From Candidatus Methylomirabilis sp. (lineage in GTDB: Bacteria > Methylomirabilota > Methylomirabilia > Methylomirabilales > Methylomirabilaceae), in contig JBGQJI010000016.1 of the NCBI GenBank assembly GCA_041498975.1, forward strand, positions 1 through 28,697: 28,697 nucleotides of DNA, given 5' to 3'. Under the pieces are notes generated by a model. That model had not been told where the DNA came from, made no database searches, and saw nothing but the letters and a program-made list of their open reading frames with translations. The translations under genes were made by a program, and so were the position numbers. Shown here one piece after another: positions 18,241-28,697 of the stretch; position 1 is the first letter of the stretch; each line of letters opens with the position of its first letter.

Positions 18241-19311
<1,071 letters not shown>

Positions 19312-19553: not shown

Positions 19554-19871
19554 CTATGAACGCTTTATTTTTCGAGCTGCACGAGCTCGTTCGACCAGAT
19601 AGTCCAGCAGCGGTTGGAATATCTCAGGAATGGACGCCTCATCCATCTCGACCTTTTTCACCCGAGTCCCATCCTCGATTGCCACCCGGTATTGGAACTG
19701 ATCGGGGCGTTGGGTTGTCGACTTCAGCGACGCGGGAAGATCGAAGAGGGCAGCGGAGACAATCAAACGACGGAGGCGCTCCGCTTCCTCGCGGGGGAGC
19801 ATCTCGGTGTCGAGTGTCGCCGTCAGGCGTATCCCCGCGACTCCCCCGCTCCGAGAAAACTCAACCTTCAC
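19554..19871 (-). CDS. Protealysin inhibitor emfourin-like protein
   Basis: FSRSGGVAGI...DQFQYRVAIEDG...LLDYL; directly downstream of an M4 protease. Confidence 0.88.
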   Translation of the reverse strand: MKVEFSRSGGVAGIRLTATLDTEMLPREEAERLRRLIVSAALFDLPASLKSTTQRPDQFQYRVAIEDGTRVKKVEMDEASIPEIFQPLLDYLVERARAARKIKRS

Positions 19872-19992
19872 TTTTCACCTCATGAAGAAAGGGTTTAGGG
19901 TGTAGGGTAAAGACCAAGAAAGGCCCGCTGACCCCTCGACCCCCTGCACCCTATACGCTATACCCTTTACCCTAGACCCTATCCCCTCTACC

Positions 19993-21066
19993 CTATGCCT
20001 TAAGCCCGACGGCGGCCCATCCTTCTCGGACCGCTTTCTGCTCGAGGCTTACGGCGCCGTACAACTCCTTGGCCGCTGCCATTGTCCACCGCGCAGCGCT
20101 TCTAAATGACGAGGTCGGTCGAAGCTTGTCTCTCAGCGTGACATACCAGATTTGTCCCGCCTTTGCCCAGGCATTGCCGCCCAGCCGAATCGACGTCTCA
20201 TAGAAGGCCCGGTTCGGGATGCCCGAATTGATGTGGACCCCGCCATTGTCGTCCTGGGTTCTTACATAGTCTTTCATGTGCCCCGGCTGTGGATCTTTCC
20301 CCAGGATGTCATCGTCATAGGCGCTGCCGGGCTCTTTCATGGAGCGGAGCGCTTTCCCTCTGACCCCCGGGGCGAAGAGCCCCTTCCCGATCAGCCAATC
20401 CGCCTGCTTCGCGGTTTGTCGCCGTTTGTACTGCTTGACCAGCGATCCAAACACATCCGAGAAGGATTCATTTAGCGCGCCCGATTGATCTTGATACTCC
20501 AAGCCAGCCTCGTACTCCGTCACTCCGTGTGTCAATTCATGGCCGATCACATCGACCGCGACGGTGAATCGATCGAACAGTTCGCCATCGCCATCCCCAT
20601 AGACCATCTGCTGGCCGTTCCAAAAGGCGTTATCATACTTGCGGCCATAATGGACGGTGGAGTCCAGACGCATTCCCCGCTCGTCGATCGAGTTCCGGCC
20701 ATACACGTTGAAGTACAGATCATACGTCGCTCCCGACCCATCATAGGCCTCGTTCACGGCCGGATCTTTAGTCTTGGGGTCGCCCTCTCCACGCACCAAC
20801 CGACCGGGCAGGGTCGAGCCATTTCTGGCATCATAAATCGTCCGACGTTTTGTGCCGGTGGCGGTCGTCCCCATCGCGGCGATGACGGAGAGCGCTTGGC
20901 GTTGACCCCGCATCTGCTCGGAGATGGTCAGCGTCTGCCAGGCCCACACTTGTTGTCTGGCGCTTCCTCGTTTCGCGATCTCCTTGAGCATGTGCGGCGG
21001 AACAATGCAGTAGATCGGGCAGAAGTTCGAAGAACCATTCGCGCCCCGCTCGCCTGGCATCAGCAT
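19993..21066 (-). CDS. Protealysin-like M4 family metallopeptidase
   Basis: Short propeptide CIVPPHML; NAFWNG, HELTH zinc motif, GALNESFSD, DNGGVHINSGIPN. Confidence 0.95.
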   Translation of the reverse strand: MLMPGERGANGSSNFCPIYCIVPPHMLKEIAKRGSARQQVWAWQTLTISEQMRGQRQALSVIAAMGTTATGTKRRTIYDARNGSTLPGRLVRGEGDPKTKDPAVNEAYDGSGATYDLYFNVYGRNSIDERGMRLDSTVHYGRKYDNAFWNGQQMVYGDGDGELFDRFTVAVDVIGHELTHGVTEYEAGLEYQDQSGALNESFSDVFGSLVKQYKRRQTAKQADWLIGKGLFAPGVRGKALRSMKEPGSAYDDDILGKDPQPGHMKDYVRTQDDNGGVHINSGIPNRAFYETSIRLGGNAWAKAGQIWYVTLRDKLRPTSSFRSAARWTMAAAKELYGAVSLEQKAVREGWAAVGLKA

Positions 21067-21285
21067 TTTTTGATCTCCTCTTCCCTGGATGACATTTGGA
21101 CTTCGAGGCCGGTAACCCCGCGGGCACTGTGACAGAGTTTAGACAGCCTCCTTCAGGAAGACAAGCAGAACCTCTTCGAACAGAATGTCTTTGTGCGAGT
21201 AGGGGCAGGAGACACTCCCGCAATCCCTCCAGCGGATGGGCAGAGGCTGGGAAGTGGCGCCCAGGCGCGGCCCAGCCGGGCTACC

Positions 21286-22485
21286 CTAGCGAGGTGGAGG
21301 GATTGGAGGATGGGAAGGGATCCCCGGCAGCGACAGCGGTTGGCGCCCGGCAGGTGGAGCAGGTGCCAAGCCTGGCCCGGCGGTAACGCGGATGTGTCTT
21401 GAGACGGCGGCCGAACGTCCGGTCGTACTCGTTGCCAATGCTCTCAGCTCCCATTCCCCTGGAGTCAGAGTTCCCGATGGCAACACCTCCCGGTAGGTGA
21501 ACGAAGGGGTGGGAAGACCTGTAGACCGTACGGGAATCGTCTTCACAGCCCGGTACGGTCCTGAGCCACCGCGCTGCCGTACCCCGATCTCGATCCGGTC
21601 CAGCCCGCAGCCGGGATCAGACGCCGGCCCGCTGACGGTGAGGGAATTCACCGTCGAGGCTTGCTGTCCATCACCTGGCTGATCCATCCCGATCGTCGGA
21701 GGAGCATCCCCATCTAAGGTGAAGGTGGTCCCCCTAGCGAGTCGGTTTCCTACCCAATCCTCTGCCTCGAAACCTGCGCTGATCACGCCGCTACGGGGGG
21801 GATCAGACAGCCCGACCGCAATCGTAAAGGTATGCCTCGGCTCCAGAGCTGTGAGCACGTGGGGCTGCCGCCCCAAAGGACCGAGGTCATGTGTGAGGCT
21901 CCTGATCCCAATGTCATCGGAGGCCGTCAGCCGCAGATCAATGCTCGTTCCGGGCCTGATGCAGGCTCCCGCAGACGGGGCGTGAATTTCGATTCCAGGC
22001 GGTCCGCAGTCAAGGAATACCTTCGTTGCGGGCTCAGGAGACGCAACATTACCCCTTTCACTCGGAGTCCCACCCCTGAATTCCGCCACGGCGCGCAGGT
22101 TATGCCTGCCACATGAGAAAAGATCCGCAGCGAGGCTTACTCGCTCGTTAACAGCAAGGAGGCGTACGTTGCCCGTTGTTGGCTGTCCGACAGTCACCCG
22201 GGGACCAATGGGAGAGGGGAATTCTCCGGGCCTCACCTGTTCGCCCACCCAGACCGCTTCAACATTCTCCGGCCTGAACAGGCGGTTCGAGCCATCGACA
22301 TTGATCCCCACCTCTAGGGTAGACCCCTGTCTAATGATATAGGCTTGCCCTCCCTCAGATGTTGGAACCGGACCCGTGGGGCGAAGAACGCGCAGAGATA
22401 CCGGAGATTGCGCCTCTACTAGAACGGCCGTACCAAGCATGGGTAGCGCCACCGCAACACTCACAAGATAACTATAAATCTTCAT
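21286..22485 (-). CDS. Secreted protein with bacterial Ig-like domains and Pro-rich tail
   Basis: GAAGGAGG RBS + MKIYSYLVSVAVALPMLGTAVLVEA signal; DxxPPxI..P, ASDDIGI, AEDWVGN, VSGPASDPGCGLDRIEI Ig-like motifs. Confidence 0.75.
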   Translation of the reverse strand: MKIYSYLVSVAVALPMLGTAVLVEAQSPVSLRVLRPTGPVPTSEGGQAYIIRQGSTLEVGINVDGSNRLFRPENVEAVWVGEQVRPGEFPSPIGPRVTVGQPTTGNVRLLAVNERVSLAADLFSCGRHNLRAVAEFRGGTPSERGNVASPEPATKVFLDCGPPGIEIHAPSAGACIRPGTSIDLRLTASDDIGIRSLTHDLGPLGRQPHVLTALEPRHTFTIAVGLSDPPRSGVISAGFEAEDWVGNRLARGTTFTLDGDAPPTIGMDQPGDGQQASTVNSLTVSGPASDPGCGLDRIEIGVRQRGGSGPYRAVKTIPVRSTGLPTPSFTYREVLPSGTLTPGEWELRALATSTTGRSAAVSRHIRVTAGPGLAPAPPAGRQPLSLPGIPSHPPIPPPR

Positions 22486-22930
22486 TGAGCCCTCCTTCAC
22501 GGGCCATCTTATCAACCCGGTCGTCTGGATCCGCTGAGACGGAAGCTTGGGACGATTACCGGCGCTCCTCCAGCCGAAAGGTTCGATCAATGTTGCTCGG
22601 CCACTTGGCGTCCTCCTGGGCGCTCATGCCGATGCAGTAGGTGTTGCCCTCCCGACTTTGTCCCCCTTCGGGAATTGCAGGGTATTCCCGAAGCCCGGCC
22701 AGGAAGCCATGACAGCACCAAGGATGAAGAAGTCGAGATCTCGTGGCTTAACCCAGCGGGGCGATTGCGTCCCAACTACCTGTCATTCACGGTGGGCGAA
22801 AACCGCTCCACCTCACTGCACAGGCGCCGCTATTCCTCTTGAAGCTTTCGTCTCCACCTCACGGGGCCAGACCGTTTATCATCCAGTCTTTCTCTCCCGC
22901 TTCCCATAACCGGCCGCGCGATACGTTCGG

Positions 22931-22967
22931 TCACCTGGTCTCTCGCTCGACCGGACGGGAGGGTTCA
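22931..22967 (-). promoter_or_regulatory. ECF-type promoter copy 1
   Basis: TGAACC-N16-CGAG-AGACCAGGTGA. Confidence 0.65.
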
Positions 22968-23026
22968 CGCGTAACCGGTTCGCGAAGCGGTGAGACGGGA
23001 AGGGGCGGCTGCCCGCCCCTCTCGAC

Positions 23027-23602
23027 CTACTTGGGCCAACTGGTATTGATCTGCTGCCCGGTCAGCTCCATCCGGTTGTTGTTCCGGTTACAGTCATCGT
23101 TCTTCGGATTCGCGTCGATGTAGATATCGGGGTCGTACGTAAGCTGCAGCACGTACTTTGGAGGGAACTCTGTAGCAGTGTTCCAGGCAGTTTCGTAATG
23201 GAGCATGATCGTGGCGCCGGGATCGAGGCGAGGGATGTCCTGCTTCGCCTTGACGCTTGCTGGTCCGCTCGCCGGCGTCTCATAAAGTTGGGCGCTGGCC
23301 TGTCGAGGGTCAGACTCAAACACCGCGTTCCCTACATTCTTCACGACACCCTCAATCCGGATCCGCCCCTGCGTCGTTGGCCACTTCGGGTCCTTGGCGA
23401 CAACCTTGTACTTCAGGCTGAAGGCTGCAGGATCCCGGCACTCCTTGACGACCGGCGGGATCGTCGGGCGTATTCCGGGAATCGTCGGCGTTGGGATTGG
23501 TTTTAGAATCGTCGGCCCCGGGCCTACCGGGCCCCCTGCCCATGTCAGGCTCCCAACGATCAACAGACCTATGCTTAAGGCGGCAATCCATCCACTCTTC
23601 AT
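23027..23602 (-). CDS. Secreted CARDB-like domain protein
   Basis: AAGGAGGAGG RBS, signal peptide MKSGWIAALSIGLLIVGSLTWA, Pro-rich linker, VKNVG...IPRLDPG...DDCNRNNN. Confidence 0.78.
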   Translation of the reverse strand: MKSGWIAALSIGLLIVGSLTWAGGPVGPGPTILKPIPTPTIPGIRPTIPPVVKECRDPAAFSLKYKVVAKDPKWPTTQGRIRIEGVVKNVGNAVFESDPRQASAQLYETPASGPASVKAKQDIPRLDPGATIMLHYETAWNTATEFPPKYVLQLTYDPDIYIDANPKNDDCNRNNNRMELTGQQINTSWPK

Positions 23603-23760
23603 GAACCTCCTCCTTCCTTTCGGGTTACCGAAGGTTGCTACAGCGTCCTCGTGTATGCAGGACCTTGAGTGGCCCGCGTTTCGGTGCATACCTGGCCTCG
23701 GTGTCTCGCGCCTGATCATCCCCCCTTTCGCGCTCCATTGATTCAACACCCACATCTCCC

Positions 23761-23797
23761 TCACCCTGTCCGTCGCGTCAAAACATGGAATGGTTCA
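23761..23797 (-). promoter_or_regulatory. ECF-type promoter copy 2
   Basis: TGAACC-N16-CGAC-GGACAGGGTGA. Confidence 0.75.
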
Positions 23798-24171
23798 CGA
23801 ATGTTTCAGCCCATCATGCTCTGCCCACGCTCGAACCTTCGCGTCTGAACTGTCCGCAGCCAGCTCCCCCGAATGGCTTGCCGAAAAAGTCCCCTCGCTG
23901 ATTCAGAGATCCTACCCCCTCCTACCGAACCCCCCGACCCAACAACTGGATTACCCGCGAAATTGAGGTCCTGGATTGGTGGTCACCGGCGCCACGGAAT
24001 CCGAATCCAATCGTTCAGGCGGCGGCCGGTGGCGTCATATAACTTGATGCCAGAACGCACCACTGGCGACATCCATCATCAGTTTCCACCTCTCGTGATC
24101 GACGGCGCTGAACCCCCAGCCCTTCGAGAGCCAATTCATCGCTGTCCTACCCCTGGGGTGAATTGCTCGCC

Positions 24172-24206
24172 GATCAGTTTGTCGCTCGATGGAGCCCCCA
24201 GGTTCA
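24172..24206 (-). promoter_or_regulatory. ECF-type promoter copy 3
   Basis: TGAACC-N16-CGAC-AAACTGATC. Confidence 0.6.
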
Positions 24207-24516
24207 TTATACCCTGGCGCCCGGCTCAGGCGATGTCATTTCATCAGAGGCAAGGAGAGTGGCCCCGGCTTCCACGGGCCTGATTTCGGCCAGTCGCGAG
24301 GAACACGCCACAGCGCTCCACCTGCTGAGGCAGCTTGAGGAGCTCAGCGTCCCGCTGTTCACTCTGCCCCTGCTCGAATCCGCCCCGTGTCGGCAGGCAT
24401 AGATGAGAGCGACCCATCCCCTGCCAGTCGCTTTTTCCAGGAACCAGATACGCCCGCAGTTTGGTCTTCCCAGCTTCCAGCCTCACAACCCGCGAGCGCG
24501 CCTCGGAACCGAGCGT

Positions 24517-25248
24517 TCATGGCTTGCCAAACACAAAGGTATTGTTGTTTTCGTTCGATTCGGCAACCTCTTTCTTGCAATCCGCCGTCAGGAGCAATCC
24601 CCCCGCTGGGTCCAGCCCCGATGGTTTCAATACAGCATCTACTGAGACAGATGAATAATGTTCAGAACCTGCAGCTATTGAGGGCACGGAAACCTCTACA
24701 GACTTACCTGCGCCACCGGAGTAGGATATGCATAAGTGAGAGGGCCCGGCATTCCCATTCCCCTTGTTGGCGATCGTGACCACCAAGAAGACAGGCCCGA
24801 CCTCCGCATCTTTGACCGCCAAATCCGGCTGCTTCGTCGAGCAGACCACCTTAAAGTTGGCTTTGCTCGATTCCATCTGGCGTGGCGACAGGATCTTAAT
24901 GGCTACCCATCCCGTGTACGTCGGTGGTACCTTTATGTCCCCTAGCGTCCAGGTGGTCGTCACACCTTGCGTCCCAGCGGCCGTAAAGGTCAGGGTTTTG
25001 GTGACTGTGTCTACCCCTCCATCGCTTCGGGCAAAGATATACTTGACAGTCCCTGGCCCGTTTGCGTCAATGTGTCCATTAAATGTGATTTTTGCCGGAC
25101 ACACACCGTCGTAGGCGGTGGGGGTTGCATTAAGGATTGCACCCGTCACCACGAATGGCGCCGCAAAGGATAGGGACACCATGGCCGCCACCAAGCTGAG
25201 CGCCACCGCCACTACGCTGCAACTCCTGATCGCTGGTTGCCACATCAT
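24517..25248 (-). CDS. Secreted two-domain protein (Ig-like + CARDB)
   Basis: GGAGGG RBS, signal peptide MMWQPAIRSCSVVAVALSLVAAMVSLSFA; QPDLAV...VTIANKGNGNAG...EVAESNENNN CARDB signature. Confidence 0.8.
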   Translation of the reverse strand: MMWQPAIRSCSVVAVALSLVAAMVSLSFAAPFVVTGAILNATPTAYDGVCPAKITFNGHIDANGPGTVKYIFARSDGGVDTVTKTLTFTAAGTQGVTTTWTLGDIKVPPTYTGWVAIKILSPRQMESSKANFKVVCSTKQPDLAVKDAEVGPVFLVVTIANKGNGNAGPSHLCISYSGGAGKSVEVSVPSIAAGSEHYSSVSVDAVLKPSGLDPAGGLLLTADCKKEVAESNENNNTFVFGKP

Positions 25249-25301
25249 CTTGCCCTCCATGCCTTGATCAAGTGTGCGTCTTATGTTGGATTGCTTCAGC
25301 C

Positions 25302-25338
25302 TCGCTCTGTACGTCGCCCACACGCCCGTCAAGGTTCA
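25302..25338 (-). promoter_or_regulatory. ECF-type promoter copy 4
   Basis: TGAACC-N16-CGAC-GTACAGAGCGA. Confidence 0.78.
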
Positions 25339-25624
25339 TCGACCCGAGAGATTCCCTCTCGATCCTCTTAGCGACGGGAGCACCTGGTGACACAGGATTC
25401 ATGGAACATCACTCTCTTGATGTCGCGCGGCGGCTGTCCGGCGACCGGTGAGCCGTCGCGAACGATGAGCCGGGCGTCGCCACCCTCGTGGCCCACCTAG
25501 AGCTCCTGCCGCCGCCACTGATCGTCCTGGAGGCCACCGGCGCTCGAAGTCCCCCTCACGGGCTCGCGGATCTCATAACTCGCTAAACCTCGCTGCGAGC
25601 CTCTAGAAAAAACCGGCCCGAGCA

Positions 25625-26032
25625 TCAGTAGCATGAAAAGCCGGTTTTTGCGGGACTACAATTGGTTGTTCCTTGTGGGAAATACCGCATCACAGGCCAC
25701 TTCAAACCATATATCGAATACTCACAGACGAGCGCTTTCCCGACAATGTGATCTAATCTTACGTTTACCAAGTTTCCTACTAGAGGTGTAGTCCACCAAG
25801 ATGCAGGGAGAGGGGTCGTGATTTCTACCCTGATCGACTCCAACGGACACTTGACAAACTGTTGAAAACCAGGCGGAATCTTATTCGGGATCGGGGGTAG
25901 CTTCTCGGGGATTTGGCGCGGTTGCTGCTCCATGATGCGAGGAGGGTCGGCGGCGTGAACCGGCGTGACGCCCAACATGGCCAAGGTCAAGGCCAGCATT
26001 ACGATCGTGACGAGCAGGCGACGTCCTCTCAT
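25625..26032 (-). CDS. Small secreted 4-Cys hypothetical protein
   Basis: TAGGAGGAG RBS, signal MRGRRLLVTIVMLALTLAMLGVTPVHA, Pro-rich linker, four Cys in the mature domain. Confidence 0.75.
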   Translation of the reverse strand: MRGRRLLVTIVMLALTLAMLGVTPVHAADPPRIMEQQPRQIPEKLPPIPNKIPPGFQQFVKCPLESIRVEITTPLPASWWTTPLVGNLVNVRLDHIVGKALVCEYSIYGLKWPVMRYFPQGTTNCSPAKTGFSCY

Positions 26033-26118
26033 CAGCGTACTCCTCCTAACGTATGAGACTGCGTTGATGAAGTGGATCCCTTCAGTCCAACTCAAGAGGG
26101 TTAGCAAGTCATCAGGCT

Positions 26119-26155
26119 TCACTCTGTATGTCGGCCGCACCTCCGTCAAGGTTCA
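26119..26155 (-). promoter_or_regulatory. ECF-type promoter copy 5
   Basis: TGAACC-N16-CGAC-ATACAGAGTGA. Confidence 0.78.
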
Positions 26156-26208
26156 CCGACCCGAAAAGGACTCCCGGTTACTTGACGAGGGATCGGCTCA
26201 GATTATTC

Positions 26209-26243
26209 ACCCTCACCCGAACCCTCCCTCAAGGGAGAGGGAA
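26209..26243. repeat. CCCTCACCC..CCCTC-GGGAGAGGG REP-like palindrome
   Basis: Same family as 10854-10888; not present at the equivalent position of the paralogous segment near 27640. Confidence 0.65.
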
Positions 26244-26279
26244 TCCGTCCCCCCCCCGCCTTTGGCCTCTCTCCCACGC

Positions 26280-26650
26280 CTACTGGGCGACCAGGTCCAC
26301 GAAGCGTATGATTCCAGCGTGCCCGCGAAGTGCGCGCAGGGCCTGCTCGGACGACTTCACGGAGCCGCCGTCAAGGGGCACGTCGATCAGGTAGAAGCCC
26401 GCCGTCGTGGGACCGTCCTCGATTATGGCTTTCATCTGACCCAAGGCGGCCCGGATCGCCAGCTCAGGCGCATCCTCCTTGAAGGCAACCAGAGGGCGGA
26501 TAAGGGGGCCAGAGAACTGCCCAGCGGTGGTCGTCTGGCCGGCGAGCGCCGACACTCGGTACACCCCCCTGACGGTCCTCTCCCTAGTAGACCCACTATG
26601 ACGGCGGGAGGAGCCGGAGTCACAAGTCGAGCGGGCACACCGAGGGCGAG
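26280..26650 (-). pseudogene. Truncated, frameshifted duplicate of the anti-sigma factor 3' half
   Basis: VAFKEDAPELAIRAALGQMKAIIEDGPTTAGFYLIDVPLDGG matches VAFKEEAVEKAIRAALGELRAIIVDGPSPAGFYLIDVPLDGG; the upstream AVIVGLLGRGPSG lies in another frame (1-nt deletion near 26550); zinc-finger half missing. Confidence 0.85.
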
Positions 26651-26766
26651 GGGCACGCTCGCCGCCATTTCCTGTCGTCAGCGTATCCCCATCGGGAACG
26701 TGTCGCGCCCTGCGAAAGGATCGTCACGCCCGGCATCGCCGTCGGCAGCGAGACTCGCGGGCGGTT

Positions 26767-27114
26767 CTACTGCTGGCACCAGTACGAGTCCACGTAGGAG
26801 GTCGCCCCCTTCTTGGCACCCTTGCACGGGAATTTATAGACGATGTTCGCGATGTCGCCGCGTTGGCTCTTGTAGAAACATTTGACGTACTCACCGTCGA
26901 TGCTTGAGCCGGTGATTTGCAGGGGTACTTGGTTGATGTTGACGAATGACGCGCTGCTGTCAACGCTGCTCTTCAGGTAGCTGTCAGTGAGTTGCACATC
27001 CACGGTCACCTGCTTGGCGCAACTCCGGGCCACGGCCGCCTGCGCTGTCACGAACCAGCACAAGAGACCGCACACCACGCTTACAACCGCCAAGATCGTC
27101 TTCAGGTTCTTCAT
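26767..27114 (-). CDS. Small secreted 4-Cys hypothetical protein
   Basis: GAAGGAGG RBS, signal MKNLKTILAVVSVVCGLLCWFVTAQA, four Cys in the mature domain. Confidence 0.78.
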   Translation of the reverse strand: MKNLKTILAVVSVVCGLLCWFVTAQAAVARSCAKQVTVDVQLTDSYLKSSVDSSASFVNINQVPLQITGSSIDGEYVKCFYKSQRGDIANIVYKFPCKGAKKGATSYVDSYWCQQ

Positions 27115-27134
27115 AACGGCCTCCTTCTCAAAAG

Positions 27135-27470
27135 TTTTGACGGTGTTGTTGTCGTTCGACTCCCTGACCTCTTTCTTGGTTCTGCGCATGTCAGTCCTTC
27201 ATTCCAAGACACTCGAAGTTCTCGCTCCACGCACTCGTGTTTGATGAGAATTTGGTGTGCAACTAAGGCAGTTCCACTTGCCTCAACCTGACATCACGGG
27301 TAGTCAGAGGAAGTGGTCGAGCATTACCCCAGAGGCCTCGTGGAGTTTGAAGACCACGGACATTGTTCCTGCCATCAAGCTGAGTGTTAGCGCCTCCATG
27401 CTGCAACTCTTGACCACCGATTCCAACACCGTCTTGCCCTCCATTCTCTGGATCAAGTGTGCGCCTACGC
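27135..27470 (-). pseudogene. Decayed, internally deleted paralog of the 24517-25248 CARDB gene
   Basis: MEGKTVLESVVKSCSMEALTLSLMAGTMSVVF (from 27444) versus MEGKMMWQPAIRSCSVVAVALSLVAAMVSLSF; KKEVRESNDNNT (about 27140-27177) versus KKEVAESNENNNT; shared leader GCACACTTGATC. Confidence 0.7.
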
Positions 27471-27556
27471 CCCCTTCCCTGGGCTCGGAACGATGTCAGG
27501 GTTGCACTCCCGGGGCCCCCCTCTCGGGCTGGAATGCATCAGCGACTTCCCTAACC

Positions 27557-27593
27557 TCACCCTGTCTGTCGCATGGACCCCCGTCAAGGTTCA
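27557..27593 (-). promoter_or_regulatory. ECF-type promoter copy 6
   Basis: TGAACC-N16-CGAC-AGACAGGGTGA. Confidence 0.78.
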
Positions 27594-27720
27594 CCGACCC
27601 TAGAAGAACCCACGCCTATTTCGACGAGCGAGGGTGCCAGATTATTCACCTTCCTCCTCCCAAAATGGTGCGCGGCCGACCTTCCCGGCAAGAGAGACAC
27701 GCTGGCCCACAGCTCCCTTC

Positions 27721-28434
27721 CTACTGGCCGGTTAGTTCCGCGAATCGAATGACTTCGTGCCGCTCGCGGAGCGTCCGCACGGCCTCCTCAGGCGTCCGTA
27801 CGGCGCCGCCATCGAGTGGCACGTCGATCAGGTAGAAACCTGCCGGCGAGGGCCCGTCCACGATTATGGCCCTCAGCTCACCCAGTGCCGCTCGGATCGC
27901 CTTTTCGACGGCCTCCTCCTTGAAGGCGACGCGGAGGCGAGCCCGCGGTCCAGAGGGCTGCCCGGAGATCGTGGGGCCAGTCAGTGTCCGATACTCGAGG
28001 CTGCGCCCGGACGGGCCTCTTGCCACCAAGCCCACGATGACGGCGACCTGGAGGGCGATAAGAACGAGGGCGGCGAGGGCCCAGCCGGGCCGAAGGGCCG
28101 GTCGGATCCGATCGACAAGCCAGGCCCACGTCGAGCGATCCTGCTGGCCACCGGTCCTTGGCGCCGATCGGTCGGTGGCTGCTGGAGCCTTGGCGATCTG
28201 TCCCTTGACCTTCTGCCAGAGGGCCGCTGAGGGGTCCGGCGCCTCGGCCAGGCTACGGCGCAAGCCTGCCTGAACCTTCAGCAGAGCTACCAACTCATCC
28301 GGGCAGATTGCGCACGAGGCAAGGTGATCTTCAACGGCCCGCCGTTCCTCCTGAGTTAATGTCCCGTTGACATACCAGGGGAGCAGCGTGGCCGCCTCAT
28401 GATCGCATGGTGCGGCCTGGTCGGCGTGCCTCAT
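27721..28434 (-). CDS. zf-HC2 (ZAS) anti-sigma factor with single TM and extracytoplasmic C-terminal domain
   Basis: LLPWYVNGTL...VEDHLASCAIC (HxxxCxxC), TM WALAALVLIALQVAVIVGLV; ATGA overlap with the sigma gene. Confidence 0.92.
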   Translation of the reverse strand: MRHADQAAPCDHEAATLLPWYVNGTLTQEERRAVEDHLASCAICPDELVALLKVQAGLRRSLAEAPDPSAALWQKVKGQIAKAPAATDRSAPRTGGQQDRSTWAWLVDRIRPALRPGWALAALVLIALQVAVIVGLVARGPSGRSLEYRTLTGPTISGQPSGPRARLRVAFKEEAVEKAIRAALGELRAIIVDGPSPAGFYLIDVPLDGGAVRTPEEAVRTLRERHEVIRFAELTGQ

Positions 28435-28697
28435 GTCACCTCCCTGGAAAAGATCGCACTCAACACCTCCCGCAGGCGTCGCTTCGCGTGGAACATCCGC
28501 GTTTTCACCGTATTGACGGGGCACCCGGCGACCTCCGCAATCTCCTGGTAGGAGAAGCCATGCATGAAGGTCAGCTCCACGACCTGCCGATGCTCTGGCG
28601 TAAGATGCTCCATAGCAGCCCGGACATGAGAGGCCCTCTCTCGGCGAGCGATCTCGTCTGCGGGTCCCGGGGCTGGATCCTTGAGCTGCGCAATCAT
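28431..28697 (-). CDS. ECF RNA polymerase sigma factor (3' part, region 4; 5' end outside window)
   Basis: LTPEHRQVVELTFMHGFSYQEIAEVAGCPVNTVKTRMFHAKRRL. Confidence 0.93.
   Translation of the reverse strand: MIAQLKDPAPGPADEIARRERASHVRAAMEHLTPEHRQVVELTFMHGFSYQEIAEVAGCPVNTVKTRMFHAKRRLREVLSAIFSREVT

Follow-up and report, generated by a model that had tools for sequence, protein, structure and literature searches.

What does an extracytoplasmic function (ECF) sigma factor control when, together with its anti-sigma factor, it stands at the head of an array of secreted-protein genes, and what would release it? ECF sigma factors form the largest family of signal-responsive sigma factors in bacteria, and the input signal is known for few of their groups. 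The question is raised here by a stretch of 28,697 nucleotides (nt) from Candidatus Methylomirabilis sp., of the NC10 phylum (Methylomirabilota): it is the entire contig C16 (GenBank JBGQJI010000016.1, assembly GCA_041498975.1), called the window below, and belongs to a genome bin of 2.68 Mb in 241 contigs, 84.9% complete. The reading preferred here, to which we give a probability of roughly 0.7, supposes that the pair is of the ECF33 type, that six copies of one motif in the array are its promoters, that the array would be its local regulon and that the switch is coupled to a protease.

The argument begins with the motif. An earlier examination of the letters (the sequence-only reading) had picked out six copies of TGAACC-N16-CGA(C/G)-NN-AC, and all six are there as reported, on the minus strand, with the TGAACC hexamers at 22962-22967, 23792-23797, 24201-24206, 25333-25338, 26150-26155 and 27588-27593. 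The exact 16-nt spacing holds in six of six, and the continuation (A/C)(G/A)(G/A)G(T/C)GA, claimed for five, is present in five, the copy at 24201 being the one that lacks it. For TGAACC-N16-CGAS-NN-AC, 0.01 matches are expected in the shuffled window, and none of 100 shuffles reached six. Several spacers had also been called unrelated in sequence; this is true of P4, P5 and P6 (numbered as in Table 1) and not of P1, P2 and P3, which are paralogous (27588, 26150 and 25333) and agree in their flanks and in how the spacer begins, with GGTCG(G/A)TGAACCTTGACGG common to all three; P2 and P3 are 84% identical over 49 nt. As P1-P3 are copies of one segment, about four independent occurrences of the motif are left.

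Genome-wide, the strict motif has seven matches in the 2.68 Mb, six of them in the island; the seventh, C73:5886, sits within long open reading frames (ORFs). The looser TGAACC-N16-CGAS gives 42 matches in the genome, with about 0.04 expected per one strand of 6.6 kb, and TGAACC-N15-17-CGAC gives 35: five in the array, two on another contig of the bin, C206, and most of the others within long ORFs. Far from occurring at background frequency regardless of orientation, the motif is essentially confined to the island, and every copy is co-oriented with the genes; it is non-palindromic, and all six copies face genes. As had been said, none of the five signal-peptide genes lacks an upstream copy.

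Orthologues of the anti-sigma factor were sought in 19 congeners, and the motif was counted in 40 relatives. Full-length orthologues occur in three of the 19 (working labels G009, G010 and G013; L-numbers denote loci in these and other genomes), at 77%, 41% and 42% identity respectively, and each of the three has one such sigma. The strict motif is found 0-3 times per genome among the 40 relatives, and in the three island carriers all matches lie on the island contig. In each of the four islands a copy immediately follows the anti-sigma gene: G009 has the identical P1 30-mer at the same place (L020:5801), and at the site orthologous to P5 it has TGGACC-N16-CGACAGACAGGGTGA (L020:7843). In all three carriers the motif, on the gene strand, also precedes further secreted-protein genes. 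In G010 and G013 (L021:11915, L022:9549) the stop codon TGA of the anti-sigma gene doubles as the first three letters of TGAACC.

An autoregulatory copy before the sigma gene had been proposed as something to look for. The region upstream of sigma cannot be read in the window, because the contig ends inside the sigma gene. In G009 a copy lies 43 nt before the sigma start, with a ribosome-binding site after the motif; another lies before a sigma copy on C206, in the same bin as the window; and the long operon of G010 and G013 that ends in an S8 subtilase, sigma and anti-sigma is likewise preceded by one. Aligned, 21 sites from the four genomes carry high information at TGAACCtt and CGAC-A-N-AC and low information in the spacer. 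Further away, in 75 distant loci, TGAACC occurs between -260 and +30 of the sigma start in 42 on the coding strand versus 15 on the other, typically followed by GGGACATAC or GGTATTGAC. Eight mostly gammaproteobacterial loci (L043, L045, L053, L069, L081, L082, L092 and L100) have TGAACC-N16-(A)CGAC within the 3' end of the sigma gene, 60-120 nt ahead of the start of the anti-sigma gene; from there an internal promoter might serve the anti-sigma and S8 genes.

Contig C206 (L108:1-3477) mirrors the upstream half of the G009 locus: motif, secreted-protein gene (392 aa), a second motif with an N15 spacer, and the sigma copy. It was considered as the missing upstream half of the window's own locus and rejected: the two sigma sequences overlap by 83 residues at only 65% identity, and region 4 of the C206 copy is degenerate. 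It is either a paralogous second copy, a mis-binned relative or a contig-end error.

One way to dispense with a regulon is to regard the copies as passive relics of duplication, or as sites of another regulator or another ECF sigma. P1, P2 and P3 are plainly copies of one segment, and the genome has 12 matches to sigma region 2. However, P4-P6 keep both boxes and the exact spacing despite unrelated spacers; orthologous and paralogous sites in three other species keep the boxes while their flanks diverge; the motif precedes sigma itself in G009 and on C206; and it agrees with the promoter published for the ECF group that matches (below), in non-palindromic, gene-facing copies throughout. The relic account is very improbable. 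Read from the DNA, the locus is a real, locally confined ECF regulon, and the motifs are most probably the promoters of the cognate ECF sigma.

Which ECF sigma is it? The fragment in the window matches Sigma70_r4_2 at 60.6 bits and Sigma70_ECF at 27.5 bits. Aligned with the C-terminal part of the G009 orthologue (194 aa), it shows 79% identity, and this orthologue passes TIGR02937 (sigma70-ECF) at 96.7 bits against a cut-off of 42.9, as an ECF (group 4) sigma does. The sigma stop overlaps the anti-sigma start as ATGA. The sequence-only reading had likened the motif to the promoters of Bacillus subtilis sigmaX, sigmaW and sigmaM, which have an AAC-containing -35 box, a 16-17 nt spacer and a CG-containing -10 element. 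The general ECF geometry is indeed shared, but the -35 box here is TGAACC(TT), not TGAAAC or TGTAAC, and the closest match is the -35 box of ECF33.

The passages on ECF33 in supplementary file 1 of Casas-Pastor et al. (2021) describe a -35 box, TGAACCTTT, as ‘extensively conserved’, with AC usually conserved in the -10 region; an anti-sigma factor at +1 with one transmembrane (TM) helix and a zinc finger; and, in subgroups s2 and s3, a subtilase at +2, autoregulation being inferred. The 21 sites read TGAACCtt...CGAC-A-N-AC, and their -35 box equals TGAACCTTT; the anti-sigma gene overlaps sigma as ATGA, matches zf-HC2 and encodes one helix at 116-138 in the model. Since motif, anti-sigma and gene context fit ECF33, the six copies are read as candidate promoters of an ECF33-like sigma. 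The motif strings are to be found only in the supplement: none stand in the main text of PMC7826278 or PMC7776599, and TGAACC combined with ECF terms returned nothing else relevant in the literature searched. The regulon that the sequence-only reading ascribed to the adjacent ECF sigma is supported computationally, by the confinement, orientation and conservation of the motif and by its fit to the ECF33 promoter; those of its suggested checks that could be carried out on sequence all turned out favourably.

The sensor side is the more valuable part. In an AlphaFold 2 (AF2) model, the anti-sigma factor consists of an N-terminal zinc-finger domain, one TM helix (~116-138) and an outer C-terminal domain. 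The motif H37-x3-C41-x2-C44 is nearly invariant in 30 sequences, as in class I of the zinc-binding anti-sigma (ZAS) type (zinc binding is predicted), and the nearest solved N-domains are those of ChrR (E 6.7e-6), RslA and RsiW. The outer domain has the order beta-alpha-beta-beta-alpha-beta at a predicted local distance difference test score (pLDDT) of 85-92. Its top Foldseek match is the Tk-subtilisin propeptide 2z58_B (TMt 0.74, root-mean-square deviation (rmsd) 2.5), and 1spb_P, 1scj_B, POIA1 and EpiP are also matched; superposition on 2z58_B gives an rmsd of 2.3-2.5 over 62-75 positions.

Sequence profiles point the same way. Of 30 members of the anti-sigma family, 16 are matched by PF22148 (Fervidolysin_NPro-like) when E is allowed up to 10; the Pfam cut-off of 21 bits is passed by the G013 orthologue (23.8) and a Lysobacter relative (21.8), the G010 and G009 orthologues scoring 17.5 and 14.4. 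Scanned in six frames with PF22148, 21 genomes yielded three S8 genes and, as the fourth and last match, the anti-sigma domain of G010. When 78 anti-sigma C-domains were compared by hhalign with 50 prodomains of the neighbouring S8 proteins, the probability was 81% (E 1.2e-5, 55 columns), against 0.4% for the reversed control; an earlier, shallow comparison had reached only 37%. A C-terminal signature, V-x-F-A-E/Q-P, is common to the outer domains and the S8 prodomains. The tail of the outer domain past its last strand is only 3-8 residues long, under the length of the S8 protein's own linker.

A different perspective supposes that the outer domain is a generic ferredoxin-like sensor, that its likeness to prodomains is convergent and that the NC10 ligand is something other than a protease, for instance the array's own secreted protein. 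The fold alone does not discriminate, because the VIA-align Z of ~7 obtained for propeptides is common to many unrelated ferredoxin-like folds, tied as it is with eEF1B, ACT, AsnC and NikR. The window's own anti-sigma gives no PF22148 match, and no other Pfam match in its outer domain; BLASTP detects no significant similarity between the G013 anti-sigma and its S8; and a family-profile search of PDB sequences returned relatives of the N-domain only, no prodomain. Two Nitrospirota relatives have a caspase-domain gene, not S8, behind the anti-sigma gene, and in NC10 array genes fill that position. Against convergence stand the profile-profile match to the neighbours' own prodomains with its clean reversed control, the two members above the PF22148 cut-off, the shared C-terminal signature and a predicted complex with S8 that passes its controls (below). 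We judge convergence quite improbable; the outer domain is very likely a homologue of subtilase prodomains and tied to a protease. The extracytoplasmic cue named only in general terms by the sequence-only reading can be narrowed to what such a domain would sense.

The tie is seen in gene order. Related anti-sigma loci number 372 in species-representative genomes of many phyla, Acidobacteriota and Nitrospirota among them, and gene order was taken from the best 80 of the 372. The sigma gene is directly upstream of the anti-sigma gene in 76 of the 80. The C-domain is present in 77, of which 66 are followed on the same strand by an S8 catalytic domain starting at most 1600 nt downstream, one (G009) has S8 upstream, six are cut off by the contig end and four have no S8; the three loci without the C-domain have no S8 either. 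This co-occurrence argues for a functional tie between protease and anti-sigma. Fusions of anti-sigma and S8, suggested by stop-to-stop ORFs, proved to be absent (0 of 80; longer fused proteins in databases were not searched for).

The S8 subtilase gene of G009, G010 and G013 immediately precedes sigma. Its product combines PKD repeats with a prodomain of its own and carries the Asp and His motifs; the Ser motif was matched in G009 only. Prediction of a complex between the S8 catalytic domain and the anti-sigma C-domain of G009 scored 0.64, and the best of three controls 0.00; the runs agree in at least 94% of contacts, with a partner pLDDT of at least 85, and as high a score was obtained for 116 of 157 solved complexes and for 2 of 215 mismatched pairs. 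Because subtilisin-propeptide complexes are among the solved structures, the score is to be taken as likeness, not as proof of binding.

In the Nitrospirota loci L029:2118-4322 and L032:8676-10901 a gene with Peptidase_C14 (the caspase domain) and DUF4384 replaces S8 behind the anti-sigma gene; L032 also has TGAACC-N16-CGACAGACAGGGTGA on the divergent strand, before DUF4384, DUF928 and WD40 genes. In L052, L060 and L079, from the xanthomonadal genera Dyella and Lysobacter, a Gcw_chp (PF09694) gene comes after the sigma/anti-sigma/S8 operon, and in L079 three further S8 genes lie downstream.

Several observations weigh against the ECF33 assignment and its protease. P4 (24201) is followed by the next copy with no gene between them and is the weakest candidate; P6 carries CGAG, and no counterpart was found for it in G009. 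The site adjoining sigma in G010 and G013 has CTAC or CCAC, with the ATG 2 nt behind, and is a doubtful promoter. The sigma factor falls under all specific NCBIfam cut-offs (best PRK12515, 177.7 against 236 bits), and the supplement passages describe ECF33 as 100% Proteobacteria, a range that NC10 carriers lie outside; the range describes the group and does not define it, but on both counts membership rests on promoter and gene context. On C206 no Pfam family matches the gene that stands where S8 would be expected. According to the passages on it, EcfQ of Bradyrhizobium japonicum, the one member of ECF33 that has been studied, is inducible by reactive oxygen species and lacks a linked anti-sigma. 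Finally, an island-type S8 was not found in this 84.9% complete assembly, which leaves the protease partner unproven in this organism; the gene may lie in the unassembled 15% or have been lost. The sole S8 in the genome, on contig C51, was considered as a member of the regulon and set aside, as no motif lies upstream.

The last two of these points lend themselves to a further alternative, in which the regulon is as described and the switch is intracellular: the zinc finger would sense thiol oxidation or singlet oxygen, and the outer domain would tether, inhibit or chaperone the protease. RsrA and ChrR are anti-sigma factors whose domains sense thiol oxidation or singlet oxygen; many membrane zinc-finger anti-sigma factors are not redox sensors, which is counted against the alternative. 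ChrR is the nearest solved relative of the N-domain, H-x3-C-x2-C is invariant or nearly so, and the supplement's summary of ECF33 suggests a part in singlet-oxygen resistance, after EcfQ. EcfQ is nevertheless a poor model for this subfamily, because it has no linked anti-sigma; and the outer domain and an adjacent S8 occur together in 67 of 71 informative loci and are jointly absent in three of three, among the best 80 of 372. A redox switch is unlikely.

Under the protease-coupled reading, the steps might run as follows. The zinc-finger N-domain of the one-pass anti-sigma factor would keep sigma at the membrane, and the outer C-terminal domain would dock, like a prodomain, on the cognate S8 subtilase. 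That subtilase would most likely cut the outer domain; an M50 site-2 protease, of which the genome contains examples, would then free sigma; free sigma would read TGAACC(TT)-N16-CGAC-A-N-AC before its own operon and before five or six promoter-bearing cassettes; and the cassettes would supply Sec-exported proteins, some of them beta-sandwiches (CARDB, Ig) and others small and Cys-containing. The sequences themselves show that the motif is enriched, oriented and conserved, that it agrees with the ECF33 promoter in print, that the domains are homologous, that gene order is kept and how segments were duplicated; that the motifs are transcribed from, that the protease binds and cleaves, and what the secreted proteins do, is what we infer in this scheme. 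The protease could act in either direction, activating the pathway by cutting or silencing it by binding and stabilising the anti-sigma factor, and the sequence does not tell which; cleavage as the activating step is offered tentatively, at somewhat short of even odds. In NC10 the array with its promoters occupies the position of the protease, whose gene lies upstream or is absent from this assembly. The boldest version, in which the sensor is a decoy copy of a prodomain, bound and cut by a dedicated secreted protease, and in which the switch has been rewired in NC10 to an open-ended array of cassettes, is somewhat unlikely as a whole.

The first labels given to the array genes hold in part. 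The Ig label holds for the gene at 21286-22485 (Big_7), and the CARDB label for that at 24517-25260 (PF07705, 35.8 bits against a cut-off of 22.7); CARDB had also been assigned to 23027-23602, and there it falls: the gene has no Pfam match even at E 10, CARDB included, and its 191-aa product has no significant similarity to the CARDB protein. This product is modelled as a beta-sandwich with strands at 61-156, and its fold resembles Fn3 and ApaG only weakly (best E 1.2e-3). Alone among the array members, it has a homologue in each of the four islands (tblastn: 69% in G009, 31-33% in G010 and G013). The Big_7 protein is 66% identical to G009 L020:9571-10725. The two 4-Cys proteins have no detectable similarity to each other and belong to no family in Pfam or NCBIfam.

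G010 and G013 carry other sets of genes, in which each promoter precedes a paralogous CARDB gene: eight of the array proteins match CARDB at E up to 0.001, five of them above cut-off. The comparison of gene content among relatives, which the sequence-only reading had suggested, has this result: the array differs, and the promoter behind the anti-sigma gene is kept. From the differences between G009, G010, G013 and the window it follows that the island is variable and expands cassette by cassette.

Traces of the process remain in the window. The segment 28045-27557, containing the 3' half of the anti-sigma gene and P1, is duplicated at 26606-26119 (self-blastn: 68% identity, 502 nt). The upstream part of the duplicate, corresponding to the TM region, is frameshifted; a 94-codon ORF, 26280-26564, remains intact over the prodomain-like domain. 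The duplicate has 61% amino-acid identity to its parent; in the ORF, 53 of 89 residues are identical, with a dN/dS of 0.34, and PF22148 scores 12.7 bits (E 0.18). It is treated as a relic because it has no signal peptide: probably it is a leftover, though it may be a working free decoy. The leader behind P1 contains both ends of a gutted paralogue of the CARDB gene: 27466-27371 resembles 25281-25187 (78%), its 5' end, and 27178-27144 resembles 24577-24543 (83%), its 3' end. By these similarities, the array grows through segmental duplication that carries along the 3' half of the anti-sigma gene, and a gutted gene copy remains behind; the unit would be that 3' half, a promoter and the first gene, and decay would follow. 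Two leaders measure about 450 nt between motif and start codon, 27588 to 27114 and 22962 to 22485. The first (27114-27560) is explained by the gutted copy; the second (22485-22940) is unexplained and is not conserved in G009.

Table 1. Positions of the genes and candidate promoters in the window, in order from the sigma gene through the array to its downstream flank
Feature	Position	Strand	Basis or remark
ECF sigma gene, 3' end (88 codons, region 4)	28431..28697	-	Sigma70_r4_2
Anti-sigma factor, 237 aa	27721..28434	-	zf-HC2 35.2 bits
Anti-sigma outer domain, residues ~160-237	27724..27957	-	predicted structure and profile matches
P1, candidate promoter	27564..27593	-	128 nt past anti-sigma stop
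Remnant of gutted Ig+CARDB paralogue, in leader from P1 to first gene	27144..27466	-	self-blastn
4-Cys secreted protein A, 115 aa, signal peptide	26767..27114	-	ORF
Partial duplicate of anti-sigma 3' half and promoter	26119..26606	-	68% nucleotide identity
P2, candidate promoter, paralogue of P1/P3	26126..26155	-	pattern match
4-Cys secreted protein B, 135 aa, signal peptide	25625..26032	-	ORF
P3, candidate promoter, paralogue of P1/P2	25309..25338	-	pattern match
Signal-peptide protein with C-terminal CARDB domain	24517..25260	-	CARDB 35.8 bits, residues 159-242
P4, motif copy without ACAGGGTGA-like extension and without own gene	24177..24206	-	pattern match
P5, candidate promoter, unrelated spacer	23768..23797	-	pattern match
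Secreted beta-sandwich protein, 191 aa	23027..23602	-	predicted structure
P6, motif copy with CGAG replacing CGAC, unrelated spacer	22938..22967	-	pattern match
Secreted Big_7 Ig-domain protein, 399 aa, final array gene	21286..22485	-	Big_7 35.5 bits
Protealysin-type M4 protease (Peptidase_M4, M4_C)	19993..21066	-	Pfam
Emfourin (PF20242), inhibitor of M4 protease	19554..19871	-	Pfam
GAPDH	18241..19242	-	ORF

G009 has the flanks of the window around an array that differs: S8, sigma and anti-sigma stand at one end of it, and protealysin, emfourin and GAPDH at the opposite end. The M4 protease and emfourin genes (19554-21066) lie directly 3' of the array, in the same order in G009, and have no motif copy in front. 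In 21000-28697 no Rfam model was matched above its gathering score. A consensus scan gave no terminator-like and one sigma-70-like site, below the counts in shuffled sequence, and is uninformative.

Why should one care about such a locus? First, its regulon would be readable from DNA: one promoter type stands before five secreted-protein genes and, in relatives, before the sigma operon. It is also a clean example of regulon expansion by duplicated promoter-plus-gene cassettes. If the full scheme is right, new cassettes, each with its own promoter copy, arise through duplications seeded in the 3' half of the anti-sigma gene. The NC10 version indicates that the module can lose or relocate its protease gene and take on other targets. 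On the sensor side, a widespread family of anti-sigma factors that bear a prodomain, almost always accompanied by S8, suggests a protease-operated release of sigma that has not been described, and carriers that can be cultured are at hand in Lysobacter, Dyella, Sphingomonas and Pelagibius.

Part of this is already in print for ECF33, namely the pairing of sigma with anti-sigma, this type of promoter and a subtilase nearby. In the open-access literature searched and the supplement passages on ECF33, three things were not found: the prodomain nature of the sensor; the displaced protease of NC10 with its multi-promoter array of exported beta-sandwich proteins; and the growth of the array by duplications that include the anti-sigma 3' half. 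For an anti-sigma factor with a propeptide or subtilase sensor, the same literature offered only general mentions and no description.

How, then, does the system compare with those already known? With ECF33 it shares the TGAACCTTT -35 box, the conserved AC of the -10 region and the +1 anti-sigma factor with one TM helix and a zinc finger. It differs in its carriers, which are NC10 here and Acidobacteriota, Nitrospirota and others among the relatives, against the wholly proteobacterial group of the supplement, and NC10 carriers would extend the taxonomic range of ECF33. It differs also in that the NC10 subtilase is upstream or not found and that a multi-promoter array follows the anti-sigma gene; and the supplement passages on ECF33 make no mention of a prodomain-like outer domain in the anti-sigma factor.

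Regulated proteolysis of anti-sigma factors offers a second comparison. RseA of Escherichia coli is cut by DegS and RseP; in B. subtilis, RsiW is cut by PrsW and RasP, and RsiV by signal peptidase. Like these, the present factor sits in the membrane with its sigma-binding domain in the cytoplasm and its sensor outside; M50 proteases are present in the genome, and RsiW is among the nearest solved relatives of its N-domain. We know of no bacterial system in which a subtilase is the first protease or a copy of a prodomain is the sensor. Subtilase prodomains and I9 inhibitors (those of subtilisin BPN'/E and Tk-subtilisin, and POIA1) are alike in the order of the fold, in profile matches and in the predicted docking on S8; here, however, an anti-sigma factor carries the domain at its C-terminus, where a protease would have it at the N-terminus. 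A further parallel is eukaryotic: SREBP and ATF6, membrane-bound regulators of transcription, are released when a subtilisin-like site-1 protease and then an intramembrane metalloprotease cut them (PMC8019017, PMC12067269). This is an analogy only, as the regulators are not homologous and SREBP has no prodomain decoy. Should the decoy-prodomain switch nevertheless prove true, bacteria would provide, for the first time, a counterpart to the subtilisin-type ‘site-1’ step of SREBP.

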